A stretch of DNA of 64,000 bases from the NCBI GenBank assembly GCA_965204575.1, contig OZ241993.1, positions 384,001 to 448,000 on the forward strand. The letters run 5' to 3'. How positions within the stretch are numbered: the stretch's first letter is position 1; the number at the start of each line of letters is the position of its first letter. The notes under the pieces were generated by a model that was not told the DNA's origin, ran no database searches, and saw only the letters and a list, made by a program, of their open reading frames with translations. The position numbers and the translations under genes were made by a program. This DNA is from an uncultured candidatus Porisulfidus sp. GTDB lineage: Bacteria > Pseudomonadota > Gammaproteobacteria > Poriferisulfidales > Poriferisulfidaceae. Positions 12,974-60,770 of this stretch are shown piece after piece.

Positions 12974-14321
12974 GGCGCATCACGGTTTTGTGTGGAATAG
13001 AGGGTCAGGGATAATGCTTCCGCGTTTTAGTCTGGAGTGTGGTCTGATGGAAGCAGTGAACAAGTTTTGCGAGATGCTGATGTTTCTGCATCCGCCGTGG
13101 GAGGTGGTCTCGGTGTCCTGTCGGGAAGGAGGCGAGGATCGCAGCCCGGGGCGCGTCACGATCGAGTTGGCCTATCAGGCGAAGAGCCTGGTGCCGTGTC
13201 CGGAATGCGGGACCTTGTGCAAGCGGCACGACACGAAGGCGCGGGAGTGGCGGGACCTGGATTTGATGGGTTGGCGCACGACCTTGCGGGCCGAGGTGCC
13301 GCGGGCGAACTGCCCGGAGCACGGGATTCGGCAGATCGCGGTGCCGTGGGCGGAGTCCCACGGTCGTTTCACGATGCGCTTCGAGACGGAGGTGATCGAG
13401 GACCTGCTGGCGATGCCGCTGCGGGCGGTGGCGCAGAAGTGGGGGCTGAGCTGGCATCAGGCGGACGGCATCCGCTCGCGGGCGGTGCGGCGCGGATTGG
13501 CGCGACGCGGGCCGCAGGCACCGAAGCGGATCGGCATCGACGAGACCTCGTTCCAGAAGCGGCATGAATATGTCTCGATCGTGGTCGATCAGAAGCCGGC
13601 GTCCGGGCGCAAGGGGGTGGTGCTGTATGTGGGAGACCGCAAGGATCAGGCAGCGGTGGAGCCGTTTTTCAGAGAGTTGGGCGACGCCGCCTGCGCGCAG
13701 GTTGAGACGGCCGCGATGGATCTGGCGCCGGCCTACATCGCGGCGACCCTGAAGTACACCCAGGCCGACATCTGCATCGACCGCTTCCATGTGGTGAGCC
13801 TGCTCAACCAGGCGGTGGACCAGGTGCGCCGGGCGGAGCACAAGAGGTTGCTGGCGCAAGGCGATGCCCGCCTGGCGGGCACCCGTTTCGACTGGCTGAT
13901 GACCGAGGAGCGGATGGGCCCGGCCCGGCGCCAGCGTCTGGAAGCGTTACGCAAGGAGGACCTGAAGGTGGCCCGGGCCTGGATCCTGAAGGAACGGGCG
14001 GCGGAGATCTGGGCGTTGCGCGACCGGACCCTGGCCTACTACGCCTGGGAAGCCTGGCATCAGGCGGCGAAACGCTCGCGGCTGGCCCCGGTGATCAAGG
14101 CGGCGGAGACGATCTGGAAGCATGTGGAAGAGATCCTGAACGCCGCCGTGCTGGGCATCAGCAATGCCCTGTCGGAATCCATCAACGCGAAAGTGCAGTG
14201 GATCAAACGCCAAGCCTGCGGCTACCGCAGCCGCGAGCGCTTCCGTGAAGCCATCTACTTTCACTTGGGCGGACTCGACCTGTATCCGAGACCTCCGTTC
14301 CACACAATTCCGTGAAGACCC
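12974..14321 (+). mobile_element. ISL3-family insertion sequence, complete
   Basis: 24-bp TIRs GGCGCATCACGGTTTTGTGTGGAA / TTCCACACAATTCCGTGAAGACCC (19/24); perfect 8-bp TSD AATCTATT (12966-12973, 14322-14329). Confidence 0.96.
13047..14315 (+). CDS. ISL3 transposase
   Basis: CPECG/CPEHG zinc finger, IGIDE, AMD, DRFHVV, SNALSESIN..KRQACGYR. Confidence 0.95.
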   Translation: MEAVNKFCEMLMFLHPPWEVVSVSCREGGEDRSPGRVTIELAYQAKSLVPCPECGTLCKRHDTKAREWRDLDLMGWRTTLRAEVPRANCPEHGIRQIAVPWAESHGRFTMRFETEVIEDLLAMPLRAVAQKWGLSWHQADGIRSRAVRRGLARRGPQAPKRIGIDETSFQKRHEYVSIVVDQKPASGRKGVVLYVGDRKDQAAVEPFFRELGDAACAQVETAAMDLAPAYIAATLKYTQADICIDRFHVVSLLNQAVDQVRRAEHKRLLAQGDARLAGTRFDWLMTEERMGPARRQRLEALRKEDLKVARAWILKERAAEIWALRDRTLAYYAWEAWHQAAKRSRLAPVIKAAETIWKHVEEILNAAVLGISNALSESINAKVQWIKRQACGYRSRERFREAIYFHLGGLDLYPRPPFHTIP

Positions 14322-20300: not shown

Positions 20301-21527
20301 TCAGTGTGCCGATACGCCATGCAGCCGCTCGGCACGACGGCGCAATAAGGCCACAGTCGCCAGCAAAAGAATCGAAATCAGGACGAAAATCGTCGCCACT
20401 GCCAGGATGGTCGGCGAGATCTGCTCCCGGATGCCGGAGAACATTTGGCGTGGAACCGTTCGCTGGGTCACGTCGCCGAGTTGCAGGATTACCACCACTT
20501 CGTCAAATGAAGTGATAAAGGCGAACAGGGCTCCGGATACCACGCCGGGAAGAATGATCGGCGTCTGTATCTTGAAGAAGGTCCGCACCGGCGAAGCACC
20601 GAGGCTGGTCGCCGCACGCACCAGGTTGTGGTCAAACCCGGCCAAGGAGGCCGTCACCGTAATCACCACGAACGGGACCCCAAGCACTGCATGCGCGAAG
20701 ATCAGTCCGGGATAAGTCTTGGCGAGCCCGACCTGGCTGAACGCGAAAAACAACCCGGATGCCGTAATGACCAATGGCACCACCATCGGTGAAATCAGCA
20801 ATGCCATCACGGTGCGCTTGAACGGCATTTCCGAACGACTGAGGCCGACCGCGGCCATCGTCCCGAGTGCCGTGGCCAAAAGGGTTGCCGGAATGCCGAT
20901 GATGAAGCTGTTCTTGATGGAACGCACCCACTGCGCGTTGTTCCACATGTCGGCCCACCAACCGACCTCCGCATCCGGCGCCACCATCCCATTGCGCACG
21001 ATGTCGGCATACCAGCGCAGGCTGAAGGCATCCGCTTCCAGATTCAGCATGCCGGCGGTAAAACTGAAATACGGTTCCTGGTTGAAGGACAAGGGCACCA
21101 CGACGAAGATCGGCACCACCAAGAACACGAAGATCAGCGCGCACACTCCCCGGAACATGTAAAACAGGAACACTTCGCGCGGCCCGGCATACTCCGGCAG
21201 GCCTGCCCGGTAGCGCCCGGTGGCAAGCCAAGCGGACGCCGATGCCAAAACCCACCCAAGTGCCAGCATCAGCAAGGCGAACGCCACGCCGTGTGTCGCG
21301 AGCCCCACCAGCGCGAGCGCAAGCATGCAGAACGAGCGTGCGACTCTAGGCGATTCGGGGTGAATCGCGGCCGGAAGCGACAGCAGGGCGAACAGCAAAG
21401 CGCCTGCCAGCATGTACGGCAACATCAACGCGGTGTCGCCGTATGCCGTGAGCAGCCCGACCAAGGCGCCCGCCAGACCGCACCAGGCCGCGGCAAATCG
21501 AACCGGGGGACGGATCGCCTCAAGCAC
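20301..21527 (-). CDS. Polyamine-type ABC permease (PotC-like, N-terminally extended)
   Basis: SLRWY, AA.SLGA, FITSFDEVV. Confidence 0.9.
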   Translation of the reverse strand: MLEAIRPPVRFAAAWCGLAGALVGLLTAYGDTALMLPYMLAGALLFALLSLPAAIHPESPRVARSFCMLALALVGLATHGVAFALLMLALGWVLASASAWLATGRYRAGLPEYAGPREVFLFYMFRGVCALIFVFLVVPIFVVVPLSFNQEPYFSFTAGMLNLEADAFSLRWYADIVRNGMVAPDAEVGWWADMWNNAQWVRSIKNSFIIGIPATLLATALGTMAAVGLSRSEMPFKRTVMALLISPMVVPLVITASGLFFAFSQVGLAKTYPGLIFAHAVLGVPFVVITVTASLAGFDHNLVRAATSLGASPVRTFFKIQTPIILPGVVSGALFAFITSFDEVVVILQLGDVTQRTVPRQMFSGIREQISPTILAVATIFVLISILLLATVALLRRRAERLHGVSAH

Positions 21528-21530
21528 GCC

Positions 21531-22787
21531 TCAGCCCAGCCTCATCCGGTCGATGCCGGATACGCGGTCGTACAGCCAGTACAGGAACATGACCAGCACC
21601 AGCAGGACGAAGCCCATTGCCGCCGCCAACGGCCAGTTGAGCGATCTCCGCATGTGGAAATCGATCAGGTTGGAAATCATCTGCCCATCCTGTCCCCCCA
21701 CCAAGGCCGGAGTGATGTAGTAACCGGTGGCAAGAATGAACACCAGCACCACGCCCGCACCGATGCCCGGCAGGGTCTGCGGCAGGTATACCCTCCAGAA
21801 GGCCACCCAACCGTTTGCGCCCAAACTATGCGCCGCCTGAACGTACGCCTTCGGTATGGTCCGCATGACCGCATACAGCGGCAGGATCATGAACGGCAAG
21901 AGAATGTGCGTCATGGCGACCAGGGTCCCGGTCCGGTTGTAGACCATGCTGAACCGGCTGTCGTCGCCGATGACCCCAAAAGCGACAAACAGGTCGTTCA
22001 GCACCCCGTTGCCCTGCAGGATCGCGATCCAGGCGGTGGTGCGCACCAGGATCGAGGTCCAGAACGGCAGCAGCACCAGAATCAGAAGCAGGTTCGTGCT
22101 TCGCTGAGGCAAGTTGGACAGCAGGTAGGCCACCGGATAGCCCAGCAGCAGGCAGAAGATCGTGACCAGTGCGGAGATCTCGATCGTACGCCAAAACAAC
22201 GTGAGATGGATGCGGCGTTTCTCATCCTGGCGACGAATGGAACCGTCGCCGCGGTACTTGAGATCCACGGAAGTCGCCAGATAGGTTGGCGTATACCGAG
22301 CGGCGGCGACGCGAAGCGCTTGCCAGGTCTCAAGCTGGCCCCATGCCGGTTTATGGTCAACCATCGCCTCCCTGTAAGGGGCCTCGAAGCGTGCCGCCTT
22401 GCGCGCCGTGGAAGTGAACAGGGACCGCCCCCCGGGCAGTTCCCGGTTGACCCGGGTCGCCACTTTGCCGATGGTTTTGTCTTTCCTCGCCTGCGCCAAG
22501 TCCTTCTGCAGGGCTGCGTACATGGCTTCGGTCGGCTCCGACACGCCGTCCCACGCCTCCAATACGGGCGTGCTGTGCGGCATGTATCGTGCGTAGGTGT
22601 CGTCATGGACTCCCTGCCACAGGAACACCAGCACCGGGATGATGAAAGCCGCGAGCAGGAAGGCCAGCAGCGGCAAGGTCAGCCCCAGGGCCCTGAGCCG
22701 GCGGACCATGAGCGCCCGTGCGAGTTTTGTTTTAAGTGGGACGCCGTCGACGATAATTGCCGGCTCGGGTGGGGCTGACGGAGTCAC
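21531..22787 (-). CDS. Polyamine-type ABC permease (PotB-like)
   Basis: LLPFWTSILVRT, HILLPFMILPLY, GYYITPALVGG. Confidence 0.9.
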   Translation of the reverse strand: MTPSAPPEPAIIVDGVPLKTKLARALMVRRLRALGLTLPLLAFLLAAFIIPVLVFLWQGVHDDTYARYMPHSTPVLEAWDGVSEPTEAMYAALQKDLAQARKDKTIGKVATRVNRELPGGRSLFTSTARKAARFEAPYREAMVDHKPAWGQLETWQALRVAAARYTPTYLATSVDLKYRGDGSIRRQDEKRRIHLTLFWRTIEISALVTIFCLLLGYPVAYLLSNLPQRSTNLLLILVLLPFWTSILVRTTAWIAILQGNGVLNDLFVAFGVIGDDSRFSMVYNRTGTLVAMTHILLPFMILPLYAVMRTIPKAYVQAAHSLGANGWVAFWRVYLPQTLPGIGAGVVLVFILATGYYITPALVGGQDGQMISNLIDFHMRRSLNWPLAAAMGFVLLVLVMFLYWLYDRVSGIDRMRLG

Positions 22788-22794
22788 GATCAAA

Positions 22795-23907
22795 CTATCC
22801 CTCGACCAGCCAAGCATTGAATCTTTCGTTCAACTCATCCAAGTAATCCGCCCAGAACTCCACGTCCTGCCAAATCACGGTCTTCAGGTGGCCCGGCCAG
22901 GTCGGCATATGCGGCTGCATGTCCAGCTCGGGGTTGGAATGATGGGACCCGATCATTTCGGAAGCGGTGCGCCGTACCGGCGCATAGGAGATCCACGACG
23001 CCTGCACCGCCATGTTTTCAGGCTTGGAGGCGAATGCGATGAAGTCGAGTGCCAGATCCCGGTTCGGGGCTCCCTTCACAATCGCCCAATGCCCGATCTC
23101 CAGCACCTGTGCATCCCAAACGATGGCCAAGGAACGGCCTTCCAACTCGGATGCGTCGAAGATCCGCCCGTTGTAGGCCATACTCATCACCACTTCGCCA
23201 TCCGCCAGCAACTGCGGCGCATGAGAGCTGGCTTCCCACCACACGACTTGCTCCTTGATGCCGTTCAACCGAGCGAAGGCACGATCGACCCCTTCCGGAG
23301 TTGCCAACACCTCGTAGACCTGATCCGGGGGGACTCCGTCGGCCACCAATGCCATCTCCAGGGAGGCCTTGGGACTCCTGCGCATACCCCGTCGACCAGG
23401 AAATTTTTCCAGATCGAAAAAATCGCGGATGGTGGTCGGCCCCGGTGACAGCCGATCCTGATCGTAGGCGAACACCATTGACGCCACTATGTGTCCGATC
23501 ATGCAGGAGCTAATGGCCCTCTCGGGAAAATCCTGCTCGGCGGGAGTCCCGTTCGGTGCCGGGGGCAGGATGGAAGGATCAATCTCCTCCAGCAATCCTT
23601 CATCGCACCCTAAAAGTCCCTCGGCAGCCTCGATATCCACGACATCCCAAGTGACGTTTCCGGCCAGGACCTGCGACTTGATTTCGGACAAGCCCCCACT
23701 GTAGTCCTCGGACAGGATCCGGTGGCCGGCGCGAGCCATCCACGGCTTGTGGTAAGCCTCCACCTGGCTCTGGGTATAGGGACCGCCCCAAGAGACCACA
23801 GTCAGGTCGCCCGCCACCGCGCCCGATACCGTAAGCCAAGCTCCTGCAGCAAGAAAAAAGACAACAAAGAGCCTCTTCGGCGGTCGTGTCCGCGCCACCT
23901 CACTCAC
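22795..23907 (-). CDS. Polyamine-type substrate-binding protein 1 (PotD/PotF-like)
   Basis: SWGG.Y, WDVVD, FPGRRG, AYNGRI; GTG start overlapping the upstream stop. Confidence 0.88.
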   Translation of the reverse strand: MSEVARTRPPKRLFVVFFLAAGAWLTVSGAVAGDLTVVSWGGPYTQSQVEAYHKPWMARAGHRILSEDYSGGLSEIKSQVLAGNVTWDVVDIEAAEGLLGCDEGLLEEIDPSILPPAPNGTPAEQDFPERAISSCMIGHIVASMVFAYDQDRLSPGPTTIRDFFDLEKFPGRRGMRRSPKASLEMALVADGVPPDQVYEVLATPEGVDRAFARLNGIKEQVVWWEASSHAPQLLADGEVVMSMAYNGRIFDASELEGRSLAIVWDAQVLEIGHWAIVKGAPNRDLALDFIAFASKPENMAVQASWISYAPVRRTASEMIGSHHSNPELDMQPHMPTWPGHLKTVIWQDVEFWADYLDELNERFNAWLVEG

Positions 23908-24980
23908 TCGATCAGCCAGGCATTGAAGCGTTCGTTCAATTCGTCGACATGATCGGCCCAGAATTCCTCGTCGTGCCAAATCACGGTCTTCATGTTGCCC
24001 GGCCAGGTGGGAAGGTGCGGCCCCATCTTCAGGTCGGGGTCGGCATGGTAGCTCCCGACCAGTTTGGCGGCAGACTTGCGTACCGGTGCATAGGAAATCC
24101 ACGACGCCTGGACGGCCATGTTTTCAGGCATGGAGGCAAATCTGATGAAGTCCAATGCCAGTTCCAGATTCGGGGCCCCCTTCACGACCACCCAGTTGTC
24201 CATCGCCAGCACCTGTGCATCCCAGACCATGGCGAGCGGCTGGCCTTCCGCCGCAAACGCATTGAAGATGCGGCCGTTGTAGGCCGTGCTCATGACCACC
24301 TCGCCATCGACCAGCAACTGCGGCGGCTGGGCACCCACCTCCCACCACAGGACATGCGCCTTGATGCTGTCCAGCTTGGCAAAAGCGCGGTCGATCCCCT
24401 GCGGGGTCGCCATCACCTCGTAAACCCGGTCCGCCGGGACGCCGTCGGCCACCAGTGCGATCTCGAGATTGACCTTGGGAGTTTTGCGCATGCCGCGCCG
24501 ACCCGGGAACTGCTCCAGGTCGAAGAAATCCTGAATGGTGCTCGGAGGTGGCGACAATCGTTCCTGGTTGTAGGCATAGGCTGTCGACCAGATGACGGTG
24601 CCGATGGCGCAGTCGCCGATGGTGCCCTCAAGAAAATCCTCTTCGGCCGGCGTCCCGTCCGAAGCCGCAGGCAGGATGGCTGGATCAATTTCTTCGAACA
24701 ATCCCTCGTCGCACCCCAAGATGGCTTCGGCGTCCTCGACATCCACGATGTCCCAGGTAACGTTGCCAGCCTCAACCTGCGCCTTGACTTCGGACAGGCC
24801 GCCGCTGTAGTCCTCGGACAGGACCCGGTGGCCGGTGCGGGCCATCCACGGTTTGAAATAAGCCTCGGTCTGGCTCTTGGTGTAGGCACCGCCCCAGGAG
24901 ACGATGGTCAAGTCGTCCGCCGATGCGGTCGTTACCGCGAAACAGAGACCTGCAGCGCAGAACAACGCGAAAGACTTCAT
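23904..24980 (-). CDS. Polyamine-type substrate-binding protein 2
   Basis: Signal peptide; paralogous to 22795-23907. Confidence 0.9.
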   Translation of the reverse strand: MKSFALFCAAGLCFAVTTASADDLTIVSWGGAYTKSQTEAYFKPWMARTGHRVLSEDYSGGLSEVKAQVEAGNVTWDIVDVEDAEAILGCDEGLFEEIDPAILPAASDGTPAEEDFLEGTIGDCAIGTVIWSTAYAYNQERLSPPPSTIQDFFDLEQFPGRRGMRKTPKVNLEIALVADGVPADRVYEVMATPQGIDRAFAKLDSIKAHVLWWEVGAQPPQLLVDGEVVMSTAYNGRIFNAFAAEGQPLAMVWDAQVLAMDNWVVVKGAPNLELALDFIRFASMPENMAVQASWISYAPVRKSAAKLVGSYHADPDLKMGPHLPTWPGNMKTVIWHDEEFWADHVDELNERFNAWLIE

Positions 24981-25008: not shown

Positions 25009-26088
25009 CTATGGTAGTGCATCCAGTGCGCGACAGTCCTCGGTATTCCAGCTGACCGGCGTCTCCTGGCCCACTTTCAGGTGCTCATGGCCTGCCGCGT
25101 TGGGCATCTTGACAATAAAATCGTCATGGCCCAGCACCCTCATGCGGCAACGGATGTGGTCGCCAAGGTAAATCAATTCCTCCACCACCGCATCGAACCG
25201 GTTTTCTCCTGCTTCGCCGATAAACACCCGCTCCGGACGGATCGACAACGTGGTCGGAGTGCCCATGCCACTGCAATTGACCGCCAAGGCCCGGCCGCGG
25301 CCGGAGTCTTCGATCGAGACCTCGGCCACGCCGTCGTGGACGCTTTCGACCCGGCCGTACAATCGGTTGTTCTCTCCGATGAAGCGCGCGACAAAAGCAG
25401 TCTCCGGGCATTCGTAGAGGGTTTCCGGGTCGGAATCCTGCTGGATGGAGCCATCCTTGAACACGGCGATCCGGGTCGACATGGTCAGGGCCTCGGATTG
25501 GTCGTGCGTCACATAGACGATGGTCACGCCCAACTGGTCGTGCAGATGCTTGATTTCGTACTGCATGTGCTCACGCAATTGACGGTCCAGTGCCCCCAAA
25601 GGCTCATCCATCAGCACCAGTTCCGGTCGGAACACCAAGGCGCGGGCTAACGCGGCGCGTTGCTGTTGCCCTCCCGACAGCTCGGACGGGCGGCGATTGC
25701 CGAACCGCCCCATCTCCACCATCTGCAATGCCTCGCGCACTCGCTCCTCGACCTCGGAGCGTCCCATCCGGCGCACTTGCAACGGGAATGCAAGATTCTC
25801 ATTGACCGTCATATGCGGGAACAGGGCGTAATTCTGGAATACCACGCCGATGCCCAGTTGGTGCGGAGGCACGGAATTCACCGGGCGGCCGTCGAGACGG
25901 ATCTCCCCATGCGTGACGGTCTCGAATCCAGCCAACATCATCAGGCTGGACGTCTTGCCCGAGCCGGACGGCCCGAGCAGGGTCATGAATTCACCGCGGG
26001 GGATGCTCAGGTTGAGGTTCGCAACCGCCAGAGTCTCACCGTCATAGCTTTTCTGAACCTGGTCGAACTCCACGAACGGGCGCATCAT
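25009..26088 (-). CDS. PotA-like ABC ATPase; start codon now supplied by the element end
   Basis: GPSGSGKT, LSGGQQQR, MDEPLGALD; original N-terminus stranded at 27537-27557. Confidence 0.9.
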   Translation of the reverse strand: MMRPFVEFDQVQKSYDGETLAVANLNLSIPRGEFMTLLGPSGSGKTSSLMMLAGFETVTHGEIRLDGRPVNSVPPHQLGIGVVFQNYALFPHMTVNENLAFPLQVRRMGRSEVEERVREALQMVEMGRFGNRRPSELSGGQQQRAALARALVFRPELVLMDEPLGALDRQLREHMQYEIKHLHDQLGVTIVYVTHDQSEALTMSTRIAVFKDGSIQQDSDPETLYECPETAFVARFIGENNRLYGRVESVHDGVAEVSIEDSGRGRALAVNCSGMGTPTTLSIRPERVFIGEAGENRFDAVVEELIYLGDHIRCRMRVLGHDDFIVKMPNAAGHEHLKVGQETPVSWNTEDCRALDALP

Positions 26089-27536
26089 AATGTGTGGAAA
26101 TCGGGGGGTGAGCCCCGGTAATTCCACGACATCGTTGACGGATCACTGACGGTGTCCACTAGGCATTCCATGAAGAATGCCCCCGCTTCGTTGTCCTCTC
26201 CCCGTCCCGTCACCGGAGCGCCTCCGGCCAGGAGCCTGTTCAATCCCAGGTCCAGGATGTTTCGCGCGGCATTGATGTCCGCGTTGTCCATGTGTCCGCA
26301 GGCCAGGCACTTGAAGTGCGCCTGCTCCTTTCGGTTGTCTTTGTCCACGTGCCCGCACTCCGCGCACGCCCGGCTGGTGTTCCGCGCTGGCACCCTGATG
26401 AGGTCCATCGCCTTGTACTGCAGGAAGCGGTTCATCAGCCCCATGCATGCCTTCTGCGCCAGCTTCCGGTTCAGCCCCGACTTCGCGTTCACGTGTCGCC
26501 CCGGCTTCTCTTTCGTGCCCCGAGCCGACTTCATCATGGCCTTCACGTCCAGGTCCTCCAGCACAATGTGCTGAAAGTTCTGTGCCAGCCAAGCCGAGGC
26601 GTGGTGGCTAAAGTCCTGACGCACCCCGGCCGCCTTGCGTTTCGCCTTCGCCGCACGCTGCTGCAACCGCAGCCGCCGGTTCGAGGCCACCTTGACCACC
26701 CGGCCCGACTTCGTGCGCACCGCCTCCCCGTTGGCACCCTTCAACTCGAGTAACTTCCGATGGCTCGCCCGCCACTGGTAATGCCGGGCCCGTGACTCGT
26801 GCTTCTCAATCAATTCATGTGGAATCAGGATGATCTTTCTTCCCCCGGCCCACGAAATGGCAATGTTTTCGGTATTACGGTCGACTCCGCATACTCCGCC
26901 ATGCCAGCGCCAGTCCGGGTCTTCCACCTCCCACAGCACCGACACGTACCACTTGTCTCCTTCCTGGTACACCACCGCGGTCCGCGCTTCGCCATCGCCC
27001 CAAGGATCAACGCCCCGCGTCCGCGACTGGGCCTTGCGGTTCATTCGCACCCAGCCCACCTTCGGAACCCGCAGACGCTTGTTCTGCACCTTCACGTCAT
27101 CCGGGATCGTGAACGACTCCCGGCTGATGCCCTTGACCTTGAAGCGTGGCGGCCCGGCTTCCTTCCCGCGCTTGCCTTCCCGGAGCCGTCGGCGAAAATG
27201 GGAGAAAGCGACCCCCAAGGAAAACGCGCCCGAGCTGCGCACGATAGGACAAGACAACTCTCGCAGCCACTCGTTGCCTTCCTGCGCCTTCAGTTGGATG
27301 AACCGCCTCCCGAATTCAAACGGGAAAGCCCCTGGCTTCTCCCTCTCGCCGGCCTTGAACCGCTTGTATTCTCGCTTTTGCTCGGCCAGCAACTCGTTGT
27401 AGACGAACCGGGCGGCTCCGCACAACCGGGCGAACTGGCGCTCCTGCGTCTGGTTCGGATACAGACGGTAGCGGGAGGCTCGGTGCATGATGGACCTACT
27501 CTAGCACGGGTGTTTCACACGAAATCTTTAAGCCCC
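26079..27536 (-). mobile_element. Non-autonomous cassette with ISL3-type TIRs carrying only tnpB
   Basis: Ends GGCGCATCATAATGTGTGGAA and TTTCACACGAAATCTTTAAGCCCC resemble ISL3 IRL/IRR in this window; TSD CACGAACG(26071)/TACGAACG(27537). Confidence 0.85.
26085..27488 (-). CDS. tnpB: TnpB RNA-guided nuclease family, RuvC D-E-D intact
   Basis: YRLYPN, GVDRN, VLEDL, CAECG..CLACG, NADINAARNI. Confidence 0.95.
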   Translation of the reverse strand: MHRASRYRLYPNQTQERQFARLCGAARFVYNELLAEQKREYKRFKAGEREKPGAFPFEFGRRFIQLKAQEGNEWLRELSCPIVRSSGAFSLGVAFSHFRRRLREGKRGKEAGPPRFKVKGISRESFTIPDDVKVQNKRLRVPKVGWVRMNRKAQSRTRGVDPWGDGEARTAVVYQEGDKWYVSVLWEVEDPDWRWHGGVCGVDRNTENIAISWAGGRKIILIPHELIEKHESRARHYQWRASHRKLLELKGANGEAVRTKSGRVVKVASNRRLRLQQRAAKAKRKAAGVRQDFSHHASAWLAQNFQHIVLEDLDVKAMMKSARGTKEKPGRHVNAKSGLNRKLAQKACMGLMNRFLQYKAMDLIRVPARNTSRACAECGHVDKDNRKEQAHFKCLACGHMDNADINAARNILDLGLNRLLAGGAPVTGRGEDNEAGAFFMECLVDTVSDPSTMSWNYRGSPPDFHTL

Positions 27537-27878
27537 TACGAACGCAGTATCCGTCATGATCGGCACTCCCGATGCCGGCAAACCCCTCTCGGTTTCGTCC
27601 CGCGGGTGCCGGAGAGAACACTCCCCTGCTTCAATCTCGCGGCAACCCGCAGTCCGAGGAAAACGATACGTTTTATTGTACATAGATGCGAAGCAGGCAA
27701 AGCCTAGGGTGGCGTCCGACAGCCCCCGGTCGTCATAAAACATTCATCTCTTATTTTTATGCTCCTGTCATGCGCATCCGCGAATCTAGCCACCAAGAAG
27801 TCCGGGACCCAGGGGCAAAGGGCCGTATGTTTCCTGATTAAAAGGTCAGGGCTTTCGCTTTTGACCCGCATGGCTCGG

Positions 27879-28643
27879 CTACCTTGAGCCGCACCAGTAT
27901 CGTCCGACATCCTCCGCATACAGAGGCCAGCAATGGACTCTCTGAGGGTTGAAGTCCCCGTAGTTACTGGGGTGGAAGGTATGAAGCCAAAGGAATGTCT
28001 TTCCGTCCGGCTCGAGTTCGATAAGGCCTTTTTCGTAGTAAGCATCCCGTTTGAACCGACGACGATCGCTTTTCACGGTCCGCTTGACATGCCCTCGGAC
28101 ATCGAAACTACGGCGCAGGTTCTCCTTCGCCCAACCGCCTTGCGTCACGCAGACATCCGGCTTCAGAACGTGTAATTCTCCAGGAAGGAAGCGGCGGCAG
28201 TTCTCGAACAGGATAGAGTCGGCCTGCTTGTTTCCCCCCTTGTTCGAGCAGCACTTCGCGCTGTTCACGTGTGCGAAGTGGAGACGCGTGTCCGCAACCG
28301 TGAGATGCGGCTCGAACTGGCGGAGTAACTCCCTTGCCATTTCATGGGTGCGGTACCAATGGCGGTTCTTCGGAAGTGCCGCCACGTCGCATTCAAGAGC
28401 CCGCCTGCGGACGGCTTCGCCAGTGCGTTGTTGCGGATCCGGGCTGCCTCTGCCGGAGTCCAGCGAGAGAAAAAGCAAGCGCGGGAGCGTTCTCTCTTCC
28501 TCTTCATAGCGTGGACCCACGAAACTCGCCTTGGCTTCCGTGAATTGCGGGGCTTTTGCCGAGCATTCCTCACGCCAAGGACAGCGAAAGCCGATCGATG
28601 ATATTCCATGCGAATCATAGAACGCGGCAAGCTTTTCAAGCAT
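27879..28643 (-). CDS. Uracil-DNA glycosylase-like superfamily protein
   Basis: FVGPRY, LLFLSLD, NSAKCC, EL.VLKPDV.VTQG, FHPS. Confidence 0.6.
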   Translation of the reverse strand: MLEKLAAFYDSHGISSIGFRCPWREECSAKAPQFTEAKASFVGPRYEEEERTLPRLLFLSLDSGRGSPDPQQRTGEAVRRRALECDVAALPKNRHWYRTHEMARELLRQFEPHLTVADTRLHFAHVNSAKCCSNKGGNKQADSILFENCRRFLPGELHVLKPDVCVTQGGWAKENLRRSFDVRGHVKRTVKSDRRRFKRDAYYEKGLIELEPDGKTFLWLHTFHPSNYGDFNPQRVHCWPLYAEDVGRYWCGSR

Positions 28644-28716
28644 GTGAATCCCCCCACGTGCAGGCGTGAACCATGGTGCTGCCGGGATCAGGACAAGAAT
28701 CAGGAGCAAAAGGCCC

Positions 28717-29016
28717 CTATTTATTGTAAGCACTATAGTACTGCTTCTTGGCCCCGAACACCCCCACGTCGTAGGCACCCCCGGAAAAGTACTCGAAGGT
28801 TCCCGCCGTTTCCTCGTGGCTCGACCCATAGAACGCGCCGCGAAGGCTCATGCCCGAAGCCATGTCCGACCCACTGAACCGGCCAGAGTTGTTGCTGTCC
28901 AGACTCAGTTCGTTGGGCCTGAAGGAAATGTCCGACGGGCTGACGGAACTTCCATCGTCCAAGAAAAACCATTTCTCGATTGAAACCAGCAGATCCGGCT
29001 CATTGTCAGTGCCCAA
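28717..29016 (-). pseudogene. C-terminal beta-barrel fragment of a TbpB-like surface protein
   Basis: GAFYGSSHEETAGTF...GVFGAKKQ; no signal peptide or N-terminal part. Confidence 0.6.
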
Positions 29017-59457: not shown

Positions 59458-60770
59458 GGAACGCACGAAAGTTGACAAACAGGGAGCCTTGAAGACAATC
59501 TTCCCATGAAAGTCCTCCGCACCGTCCGCTACCGCCTGCATCCGGGTTCTGCAAGAAAGAATCAGCAACTACACGGCACCGCCGGGGCCTGCCGCTTCGT
59601 CTGGAACCACATGGTCGGGAAGCTCAGAGACGAGTACGAATTCGGTATCAAGCCGGACTTTCGCCACTATTCCCTGTGTCATGTCTTCACCATCATGCGG
59701 AGGGAGGACGGCACGACGAAGTGGTTGCAGGGCTATTCGTCAAAAGTGGTCAGGGTCTCTCTAAAGCCCATCGAGACGACCTACAAGGAGTTCTTCAAGG
59801 ATTTGAAAACCGGCGGCAAACTGAATCGGAAGCGCCCGCAATTCCATGGCAAGTACGCTGTCGCACCTTCGTTTCCGGTGAATTACGAATGCGCGAAGGT
59901 AGCGGGAGAAAGCCTGTACGTGCAGAAGGTCGGTTGGATGAAGATGGTCGGAAACAACCCGTACCCGGACGGCGAGTTCAAGTCCGGGCGGATCAAGTAC
60001 GAATGTGGCAAGTGGTACGCCTACCTGGCCTATGAAGTTCAGGCGGAAGCCAGTCTCCCCCACGCCATCAAGGAAGTCGGCATCGACCGCAACGTGAACG
60101 CGGATGGGTGGGCGGTATTGTCGGACGGCACGAAGCATCCGGGCCCGGACTTGGAACGCAAGGTGGCACGGCGCAAACGATACCAGCGCAAGATGGCACG
60201 GCAGACGAAGGGAAGCAACCGCAGGAAGATCACCAAGATTCGGTTACAGAGGGCGTTCCGTGCGGAACGCTTCGCCCGGTTAAACTGGGCGCACCACGTC
60301 AGCAAGGACGTGGCTTCACAGTATGACCTAGCCTACGTAGAGAAGCTGAACATCCGGGGCATGACGAAGTCGGCCAAGGGCACCAGAGAGAGACCCGGCA
60401 AGAACGTAAAAGCGAAGGCAGCCCTGAACAGAAAGATTCTCGCCTCCGCATGGGGCACGCTGGAGTTGTGCCTAGACTACAAAATGGAAGTGCACCATGT
60501 GCATCCAGCGTACACCAGCCAAACGTGCCATTTGTGCGGGCACGTCGATGAGAAAAACAGAAATGGAACAGACTTCAAGTGCACCGCTTGCGGGCACGCG
60601 GACGATGCGGACGTGAACGCCGCATTGAACATTCTGGCCTTCGGGAATGGGGCGGCTGGACGTGGAGGTGGCGACACCGGCGGGGCATCCTGCCACAGTC
60701 GGCCTGGGAAGCGTCAAGAAATGGTGAAGGTTGACGAGAAATCCTCTGCCAACTTTCATACATAATTCCC
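59457..60770 (+). mobile_element. Non-autonomous cassette with IS1595-like TIRs carrying an intact tnpB
   Basis: Left end GGGAA---CGCACGAAAGTTGACA versus right-end reverse complement GGGAATTATGTATGAAAGTTGGCA; perfect TSD TGGATATA (59449, 60771). Confidence 0.9.
59506..60765 (+). CDS. tnpB: TnpB, RuvC D-E-D intact
   Basis: GIDRN, YVEKL, CHLCG..CTACG, DADVNAALNI. Confidence 0.95.
   Translation: MKVLRTVRYRLHPGSARKNQQLHGTAGACRFVWNHMVGKLRDEYEFGIKPDFRHYSLCHVFTIMRREDGTTKWLQGYSSKVVRVSLKPIETTYKEFFKDLKTGGKLNRKRPQFHGKYAVAPSFPVNYECAKVAGESLYVQKVGWMKMVGNNPYPDGEFKSGRIKYECGKWYAYLAYEVQAEASLPHAIKEVGIDRNVNADGWAVLSDGTKHPGPDLERKVARRKRYQRKMARQTKGSNRRKITKIRLQRAFRAERFARLNWAHHVSKDVASQYDLAYVEKLNIRGMTKSAKGTRERPGKNVKAKAALNRKILASAWGTLELCLDYKMEVHHVHPAYTSQTCHLCGHVDEKNRNGTDFKCTACGHADDADVNAALNILAFGNGAAGRGGGDTGGASCHSRPGKRQEMVKVDEKSSANFHT

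Follow-up and report, generated by a model that had tools for sequence, protein, structure and literature searches.

IStrons place a TnpB element within a host gene and spare that gene, their right end serving transposition, the guide RNA and host-gene rescue together, with a trade-off in RNA fate (PMC13521648). The MIRUs of mycobacteria are short mobile repeats that act by design at start codons: sited at gene starts, they carry an open reading frame (ORF) that becomes coupled to the host gene through a −4 overlap, which limits the damage (PMC12548453). Among the TnpB branches associated with DDE transposases, termed DDE-1 to DDE-6, inverted terminal repeats lie round tnpB, and solo tnpB genes found between the same ends are proposed to be mobile in trans (Altae-Tran et al. 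2023, PMC10691335). The text of that study names only IS630 as a partner, with ISL3 just among its search profiles, and does not describe host-gene rescue; its figures or additional files may list an ISL3 branch. Here we describe a TnpB element with ISL3-type ends that interrupts potA, the gene for a polyamine ABC transporter ATPase, in a 64,000-nucleotide stretch (the window) of contig OZ241993.1 from an uncultured candidatus Porisulfidus sp. The right end of the element supplies two start codons in frame with the interrupted gene. The reading that best fits the sequence, and which we hold to be somewhat probable, is that PotA would be rescued by a restart of translation at the element end, coupled to translation of tnpB.

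The element is 1,458 bp long (26079-27536, minus strand) and carries tnpB as the sole gene between its ends (Table 1). It interrupts potA at codons 5-7, and congeners show the empty site. In one sequencing run a contig joined across the element (depth 16.5) was found together with element contigs, and in another run both element junctions are bridged by contigs. The first-pass annotation had reported the original GGAG and MTDTAFV start as stranded beyond the element, and we find them so on the minus strand at 27537-27569: from an ATG at 27555-27557 the MTDTAFV codons run to 27537 and then continue as GGG GCT TAA into the left end. The right end reads ...TTA TGA TGC GCC, followed by CGTTCGTG GAG, and holds a first ATG at 26086-26088 and a second at 26083-26085. 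As the same annotation had proposed, these provide a new frame, ATG ATG CGC C+CG TTC GTG GAG, which is translated as MMRPFVEFDQ and is open for 359 aa to 25009, scoring above the TIGR01187 potA cut-off of 355.6 bits. The tnpB stop (26085-26087), previously noted to overlap the new ATG, overlaps both of them, and the two overlaps are the two commonest coupling geometries (−4 and −1). The ATPase profiles align from residue 2-6 onward, so the exchange of MTDTA for MMRP should spare the fold.

Matches to potA were obtained in 12 of the 30 relatives searched, and the start motif is readable at 11 of the 12 loci. MTDTAFVEF begins the protein at nine of the readable loci, with other starts in two more distant ones. 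The concern that orthologs might natively begin MRPFVEF falls away, since neither an MRPF start nor an element at potA was seen at any of the 11. Among the 15 listed members of the PotA cluster, 13 start with MTDTAF or MTETAF and two with MMRPF. The window genome (G000) holds a single close potA copy, the next match being 34%. The operon block is collinear and 88-91% identical in all five congeners searched. Related proteins are labelled Gammaproteobacteria by their sources, and several of the sequencing runs with matches are labelled sponge metagenome; none of the runs listed is an RNA run.

The replacement start codons are specific to the potA copy, an observation that is better than chance. 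At −7 from the right end, AAG is present in 30 of 32 copies and CGG in one; at −10, GTG and CTG are found in 10 copies each, GCG in six and other triplets in five. ATG occurs at either position in the potA copy only. In the other 31 right ends, 7 of the 248 terminal bases deviate. The base that creates the second ATG also introduces a mismatch at the sixth pair between the loop and the tail of the predicted guide RNA (omegaRNA, see below), the sole such case in the 32 copies. Furthermore, the potA insertion is the only one of 27 rebuilt sites that can be placed in the 5′ end of a verified gene, and a few others may clip gene 3′ ends; at nine of the 27 the flank is 63 nt or less, too short for gene interruption to be judged, and intergenic calls were made by eye from ORF lists. 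The chance that the ATG end would coincide with the in-gene site is about 1 in 30, a post-hoc figure. In 16 of the 32 copies the tnpB stop ends at −6, and therefore a GTGA overlap already exists in the GTG variants. The nearest sister protein (85% identity over 335 aa) ends in FHTIS*, like two GTG-type copies; judging from the protein alone, the ancestor of the potA copy probably offered a GTG start at once.

The predicted omegaRNA scaffold overlaps the 3′ end of tnpB. Its putative parts are a hairpin with a GGCGCT loop (26213-26227), a terminal hairpin (26094-26127) and a 3′ tail that pairs with the loop; the fold has a z-score of −1.48, which is not significant alone. The invariant GGCGCT loop, about 145 nt upstream, is complementary at six of six positions to the last six element bases in 31 of the 32 copies. 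In a second tnpB clade of the genome the loop is GGGAAT instead, and the tail, ATTCCC, is complementary to it. Because no compensatory change occurs within the potA-element family, we treat the pseudoknot as predicted. A pseudoknot at the scaffold end has been shown for ISXfa1, and the TnpB systems of IS200/IS605 and IS607 resemble the present one in the D-E-D triad; their omegaRNA lying over the gene 3′ end and their loop-to-tail pairing at the element end would have counterparts in the structures predicted here (PMC10711439).

We also observed a one-sided base preference next to the insertion sites. A G lies directly 5′ of the duplication in 31 of 32 tnpB elements, and TG in 20 of 32. The corresponding counts for G are 6 of 23 and 8 of 24 at the two ends of the ISL3 insertion sequence (IS) described below, and 10 of 32 on the opposite flank of the tnpB elements. 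By Fisher's test p is about 1e-7 to 1e-8, which exaggerates the significance, since related copies are not independent. This bias, which is absent from the transposase's own insertions, implies the footprint of a TnpB target motif, and its near-invariant G suggests that the motif would be very short; the predicted guide would therefore begin at the first base of the duplication. With the guide length of 16 nt known for TnpB, the predicted guide would coincide with rescued PotA codons 4-9. DDE-5 elements likewise have a fixed motif 8 bp upstream of their end, placed as the G is here; the motif is TA in DDE-5, as opposed to G at that position in the present family (PMC10691335).

The new ATGs lack a Shine-Dalgarno (SD) sequence: pairing with the anti-SD sequence gives −1.8 kcal/mol, compared with −6.9 kcal/mol at the original start. 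In published tests, coupling was found in nine of nine Haloferax and four of five Escherichia coli gene pairs, with a variable need for an SD (PMC6728339). Transcription of potA could come from its native promoter or from a motif resembling an extended −10 element, TGCTAGAGT, that lies before tnpB. Motifs of this type are conserved in 21 of the 27 left ends in which the tnpB start was correctly located by pattern. A scan for TTGACA/TATAAT consensus promoters gave no sites and did not pick up the extended −10 motif. A terminator-like match inside tnpB (27242-27224) was discounted, being within shuffle expectation (four found, mean 2.8). The downstream operon genes depend on read-through transcription rather than on PotA translation. 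As regards an IStron or other intron, there were no Rfam matches at E≤5, and only 48 nt separate the left end from the tnpB ATG, which agrees with the earlier view that the gene is rescued without splicing.

Taken together, these features suggest the following course of events. An ISL3 transposase acting in trans would have inserted the non-autonomous element into potA codons 5-7, beside a G that may be the TnpB motif; the insertion and its ends can be read directly. The tnpB frame ends within the right inverted repeat, where 10 of the 31 other copies have a GTG overlapping the stop, and with the register falling in frame with potA by chance, low-level re-initiation could have occurred from the first day. 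The potA copy would then have gained ATG at −10 and −7, or been retained for having them, with the loss of one predicted pseudoknot pair. Transcription starting at the native promoter or at the extended −10 motif would continue through tnpB into the operon, and ribosomes ending tnpB would restart on the overlapping ATG to give MMRP-PotA, in which the changed residues lie before the ATPase fold. The tnpB gene itself would be kept as it is at all other sites, most likely through the cutting of empty alleles, leading to its own retention or spread.

The tnpB product scores above the NF040570 cut-off of 100 bits. The RuvC D-E-D triad is kept in all 26 aligned copies, and the ratio of non-synonymous to synonymous divergence (dN/dS) between the potA-site tnpB and its clade is 0.19-0.30, with a median of 0.245 among the other copies. 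The frame is open in all six G000 copies, and seven of the 29 matches overall have one internal stop. Thus tnpB is under purifying selection across sites and an intact gene is the norm.

MMRP-PotA is intact on two different allele backgrounds, the two proteins differing at eight residues. The second of them (P0074) is one residue from an empty-type protein and two from the empty allele of the congener G011, and the protein of the window is three residues from P0070; six sites separate the two MMRP proteins by background and none unites them. Judging from equal-sized contigs, P0074 apparently lies on one contig with this tnpB split into 254 + 193 aa, which could reflect either a genuine nonsense allele or an error in assembly; the 193-aa rear piece ends at the same stop. 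When sequencing run X4 is compared with the window, 80 of about 1,220 bases differ on the potA side, and about 2% in the element and upstream flank; in G011 the upstream flank matches at 100% across a stretch of about 125 bp. The private changes of the G000 potA comprise six synonymous versus two non-synonymous, a count that includes pre-insertion time. In 8 of 10 congeners the empty alleles carry the G and a target with 0-2 mismatches in 20 nt. This allele pattern fits homing, and ordinary recombination fits it equally.

Several observations weigh against rescue by coupled restart. The left end of this copy is among the most decayed in the family and the ends are decayed on both sides, so that the ATG changes could be part of general end decay; moreover, the base responsible for the second ATG belongs to the normal variation of ISL3 ends, occurring in 8 of the 23 transposase 5′ ends and in one of the 32 left ends of tnpB elements. 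No sibling of the potA copy's sub-lineage was seen at another site, and therefore a gain of ATG before insertion and one after it are inseparable. Most proteobacterial overlapping gene pairs still have an SD (PMC6728339). The new starts lie in the predicted omegaRNA tail, where many potA messages could be lost to binding by TnpB and to 3′ trimming. In addition, 4 of 15 congeners (one of them 76% complete) yielded no potA, so the gene may be dispensable. The decayed left end, the missing SD and this patchy occurrence would all suit a potA that is silent or barely expressed, with the ATGs as chance products of end decay; the two insertion-bearing strains are only about 2% apart in the element, too little time to demand that breaks have accumulated. 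We nevertheless consider a silent gene unlikely, because the two codons altered within the final 10 nt have both become in-frame ATGs, in the sole copy where they matter, because one of these ATGs costs a pair kept in all 31 other copies, and because the frames of both alleles and of the four genes downstream are open. There is similarly little probability, in our estimation, that PotA is made by SD-independent or alternative initiation irrespective of tnpB translation, whether from the new ATGs alone or from the in-frame GTGs at 26127 and, within the duplication, 26073. One of the five E. coli overlapping pairs was uncoupled despite a weak SD (PMC6728339), and the strain with the split tnpB seems to retain MMRP-PotA. 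However, every candidate start is weak in anti-SD pairing (−1.8 to −4.7 kcal/mol) and lies in or beside the predicted terminal hairpin, and the rear piece of the split allele shares the tnpB stop, so that coupling could persist there.

The first-pass annotation went further and suggested that coupling could select for an intact tnpB, the host's need for PotA keeping this frame whole. The geometry permits it, and the frame is whole where the ends have decayed. This part of the earlier account did not hold up, and we give it even less weight than the two explanations just discussed: the triad and the dN/dS at this site match those of the family, the G000 copies are open wherever they sit, coupling would guard the frame and not the amino acids, and the split tnpB seems to lie beside MMRP-PotA in the other assembly, subject to the possible assembly error. 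A bolder extension of coupled restart would see here a splicing-free counterpart of the IStron, in which an RNA-guided homing element has become the first gene of host operons and its last ten bases act as transposase end, strand of the guide-RNA pseudoknot and host starts. Each transcript would yield either PotA or a TnpB-trimmed guide RNA, letting TnpB tune the transporter, and the insertion would have moved between the potA alleles of co-occurring strains by TnpB-driven homing. We put this forward as doubtful though possible.

The element is a non-autonomous ISL3-ended TnpB element. In common with a 1,348-bp ISL3-family IS, the tnpB elements have 24-bp inverted repeats, 8-bp AT-rich duplications and an ORF ending inside the repeat (FHTIP* in the IS); they differ from it in being without a transposase and in the G bias that the autonomous copies lack. 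The genome has three identical copies of this IS, all with perfect 8-bp duplications, and the encoded protein is an ISL3 transposase (Pfam DDE_Tnp_ISL3). Between the ends of the potA element no DDE_Tnp_ISL3 transposase was found; since the ends are common to both, we infer mobilization in trans, with the separate autonomous IS as the likely source of transposase. Seven of the eight bases match between the two copies of the potA-site duplication. Five of the 32 left ends had no partner right end and were excluded from the duplication count; among the 27 paired ends the 8-bp duplication is the rule, perfect in 16, with one mismatch in nine and two in two, and it is AT-rich (73% A+T). Five further full copies are present in the same genome, and 23 matches in 8 of 15 congeners. 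Pairwise identity among the G000 copies is 75-92%, which gives no sign of a very recent move in that genome. A metagenome scan confirmed no further loci, and a scan of a genome collection returned two, which were excluded as duplicates of G012 loci.

Other assignments were considered and set aside. IS1595 gave only a weak split match elsewhere, the matching ends belonging to the ISL3 IS, and IS256 was dropped once the matching-ended IS proved to be ISL3. IS200/IS605 elements are not known to have inverted ends or duplications. IS607 elements are likewise described as having neither (PMC6188088). The potA element has both, and holds no second gene of the Y1 or serine TnpA type.

The other tnpB genes show further variety. 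Within the genome, tnpB divergence (median synonymous divergence 0.47) exceeds that of potA between congeners (6-11% of nucleotides), yet tnpB is intact and many old lineages coexist. Contig G000:C1 carries ten further tnpB genes, 30-39% identical (near 66782, 227846, 261552, 267927, 363459, 435838, 443518, 521798, 835460 and 1619447), one of them lying in the window at about 59518-60636. Six of the ten have 8-bp duplications, inverted ends of other types and a loop-tail complement of their own. Seven of the nine differences between the two whole alleles of the potA-site tnpB cluster at about 26660-26710 (residues 260-275) and partly match a sister protein, which suggests gene conversion among copies. 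At 624981-625020 of G000:C1, two repeat ends are fused into a 40-bp element. No duplication was seen there, and the element may be what remains after a deletion, or a circle junction. At loci L017/L073/L074, L016, L022 and L042 the left and right flanks are mismatched within the locus, and the ends of L017 pair with those of another copy, pointing to inter-copy recombination or misassembly.

A survey of right flanks, in which 15 downstream ORFs were scanned and 11 named, placed other copies directly 5′ of polA (L017/L074), cysS (L020), coaBC (L023), tsaD (L015), ilvA (L019) and ftsK (L026). The distances to the ATG are 2, 3 and 13 nt for polA, cysS and coaBC, and 36-40 nt for ilvA and tsaD. 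Several of the genes downstream of element copies are probably essential. At the polA and cysS sites the duplication includes the ATG and the old ribosome-binding region is stranded. From these positions, read-through into downstream genes looks like a family property. At its left junction, L023 cuts into the final codons of an upstream ORF whose end used to overlap the start of coaBC (ATGA); the left end of the element apparently provides this ORF with a new stop. Upstream of potA in the window, a 316-aa ORF (27879-28829, minus strand) gives a weak match, below cut-off, to the uracil-DNA glycosylase superfamily; gene content 5′ of potA differs among congeners.

Table 1. Features of the interrupted potA locus and of the related insertion sequence, in window coordinates
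Feature	Position	Strand	Basis or remark
Remaining operon: two solute-binding proteins and two permeases	20301..24980	-	all open
potA-like polyamine ABC ATPase, rescued form MMRPFVEF..., 359 aa	25009..26088	-	TIGR01187, 361.2 bits
Predicted guide: right duplication copy (26071-26078) plus flank	26063..26078	-	
Target-site duplication, right copy CGTTCGTG	26071-26078	-	
Right terminal inverted repeat	26079..26099	-	3 nt shorter than family consensus
Predicted omegaRNA scaffold	26079..26230	-	alignment, fold and loop-tail pairing; predicted
Two in-frame replacement starts, ATG ATG	26083..26088	-	overlap tnpB TGA as ATGA and TGATG
tnpB, 467 aa, RuvC D203/E311/D404 and zinc finger intact	26085..27488	-	NF040570, 194.7 bits; Pfam
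Extended −10-like motif TGCTAGAGT, candidate element promoter	27498..27506	-	9 nt before tnpB ATG; putative
Left terminal inverted repeat, ISL3-type	27513..27536	-	4 mismatches to consensus pattern
Stranded potA start, 9-codon stub MTDTAFVGA	27528..27557	-	TAA within left end
Target-site duplication, left copy CGTTCGTA	27537-27544	-	
Predicted target-adjacent motif CTG	27545..27547	-	family: G at −1, T preferred at −2; flank counts; predicted
Original potA ribosome-binding site GGAG, stranded	27566..27569	-	anti-SD pairing −6.9 kcal/mol; same region present in empty orthologs
Autonomous ISL3-family IS, 1,348 bp, matching inverted ends	12974..14321	+	

An open-access literature search found nothing on ISL3-borne TnpB or on start-codon rescue of this kind. 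The potA element resembles a MIRU built from TnpB and solves the problem of the IStron without an intron, and is a member of neither group. Unlike in MIRUs, the ORF that would be coupled encodes a nuclease of 467 aa, the host's own start has been cut off and replaced, and the ATGs are copy-specific; unlike in IStrons, the ends are of ISL3 type, and the proposed translation restart would be limited to insertions close to a gene start and to one reading frame in three. Three aspects are new: one copy has gained ATGs and given up a predicted guide-RNA pair for them, the MMRP form of potA occurs on two different backgrounds, and family members are placed in front of core genes. The siting just before cysS, coaBC and polA suggests how such elements become hard to lose. 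If rescue by coupled restart is true, it would provide a second route besides splicing by which an RNA-guided transposon can occupy and spare a host gene, and ten bases that serve three functions would show selection in the act of giving up a guide-RNA base pair to obtain a start codon.

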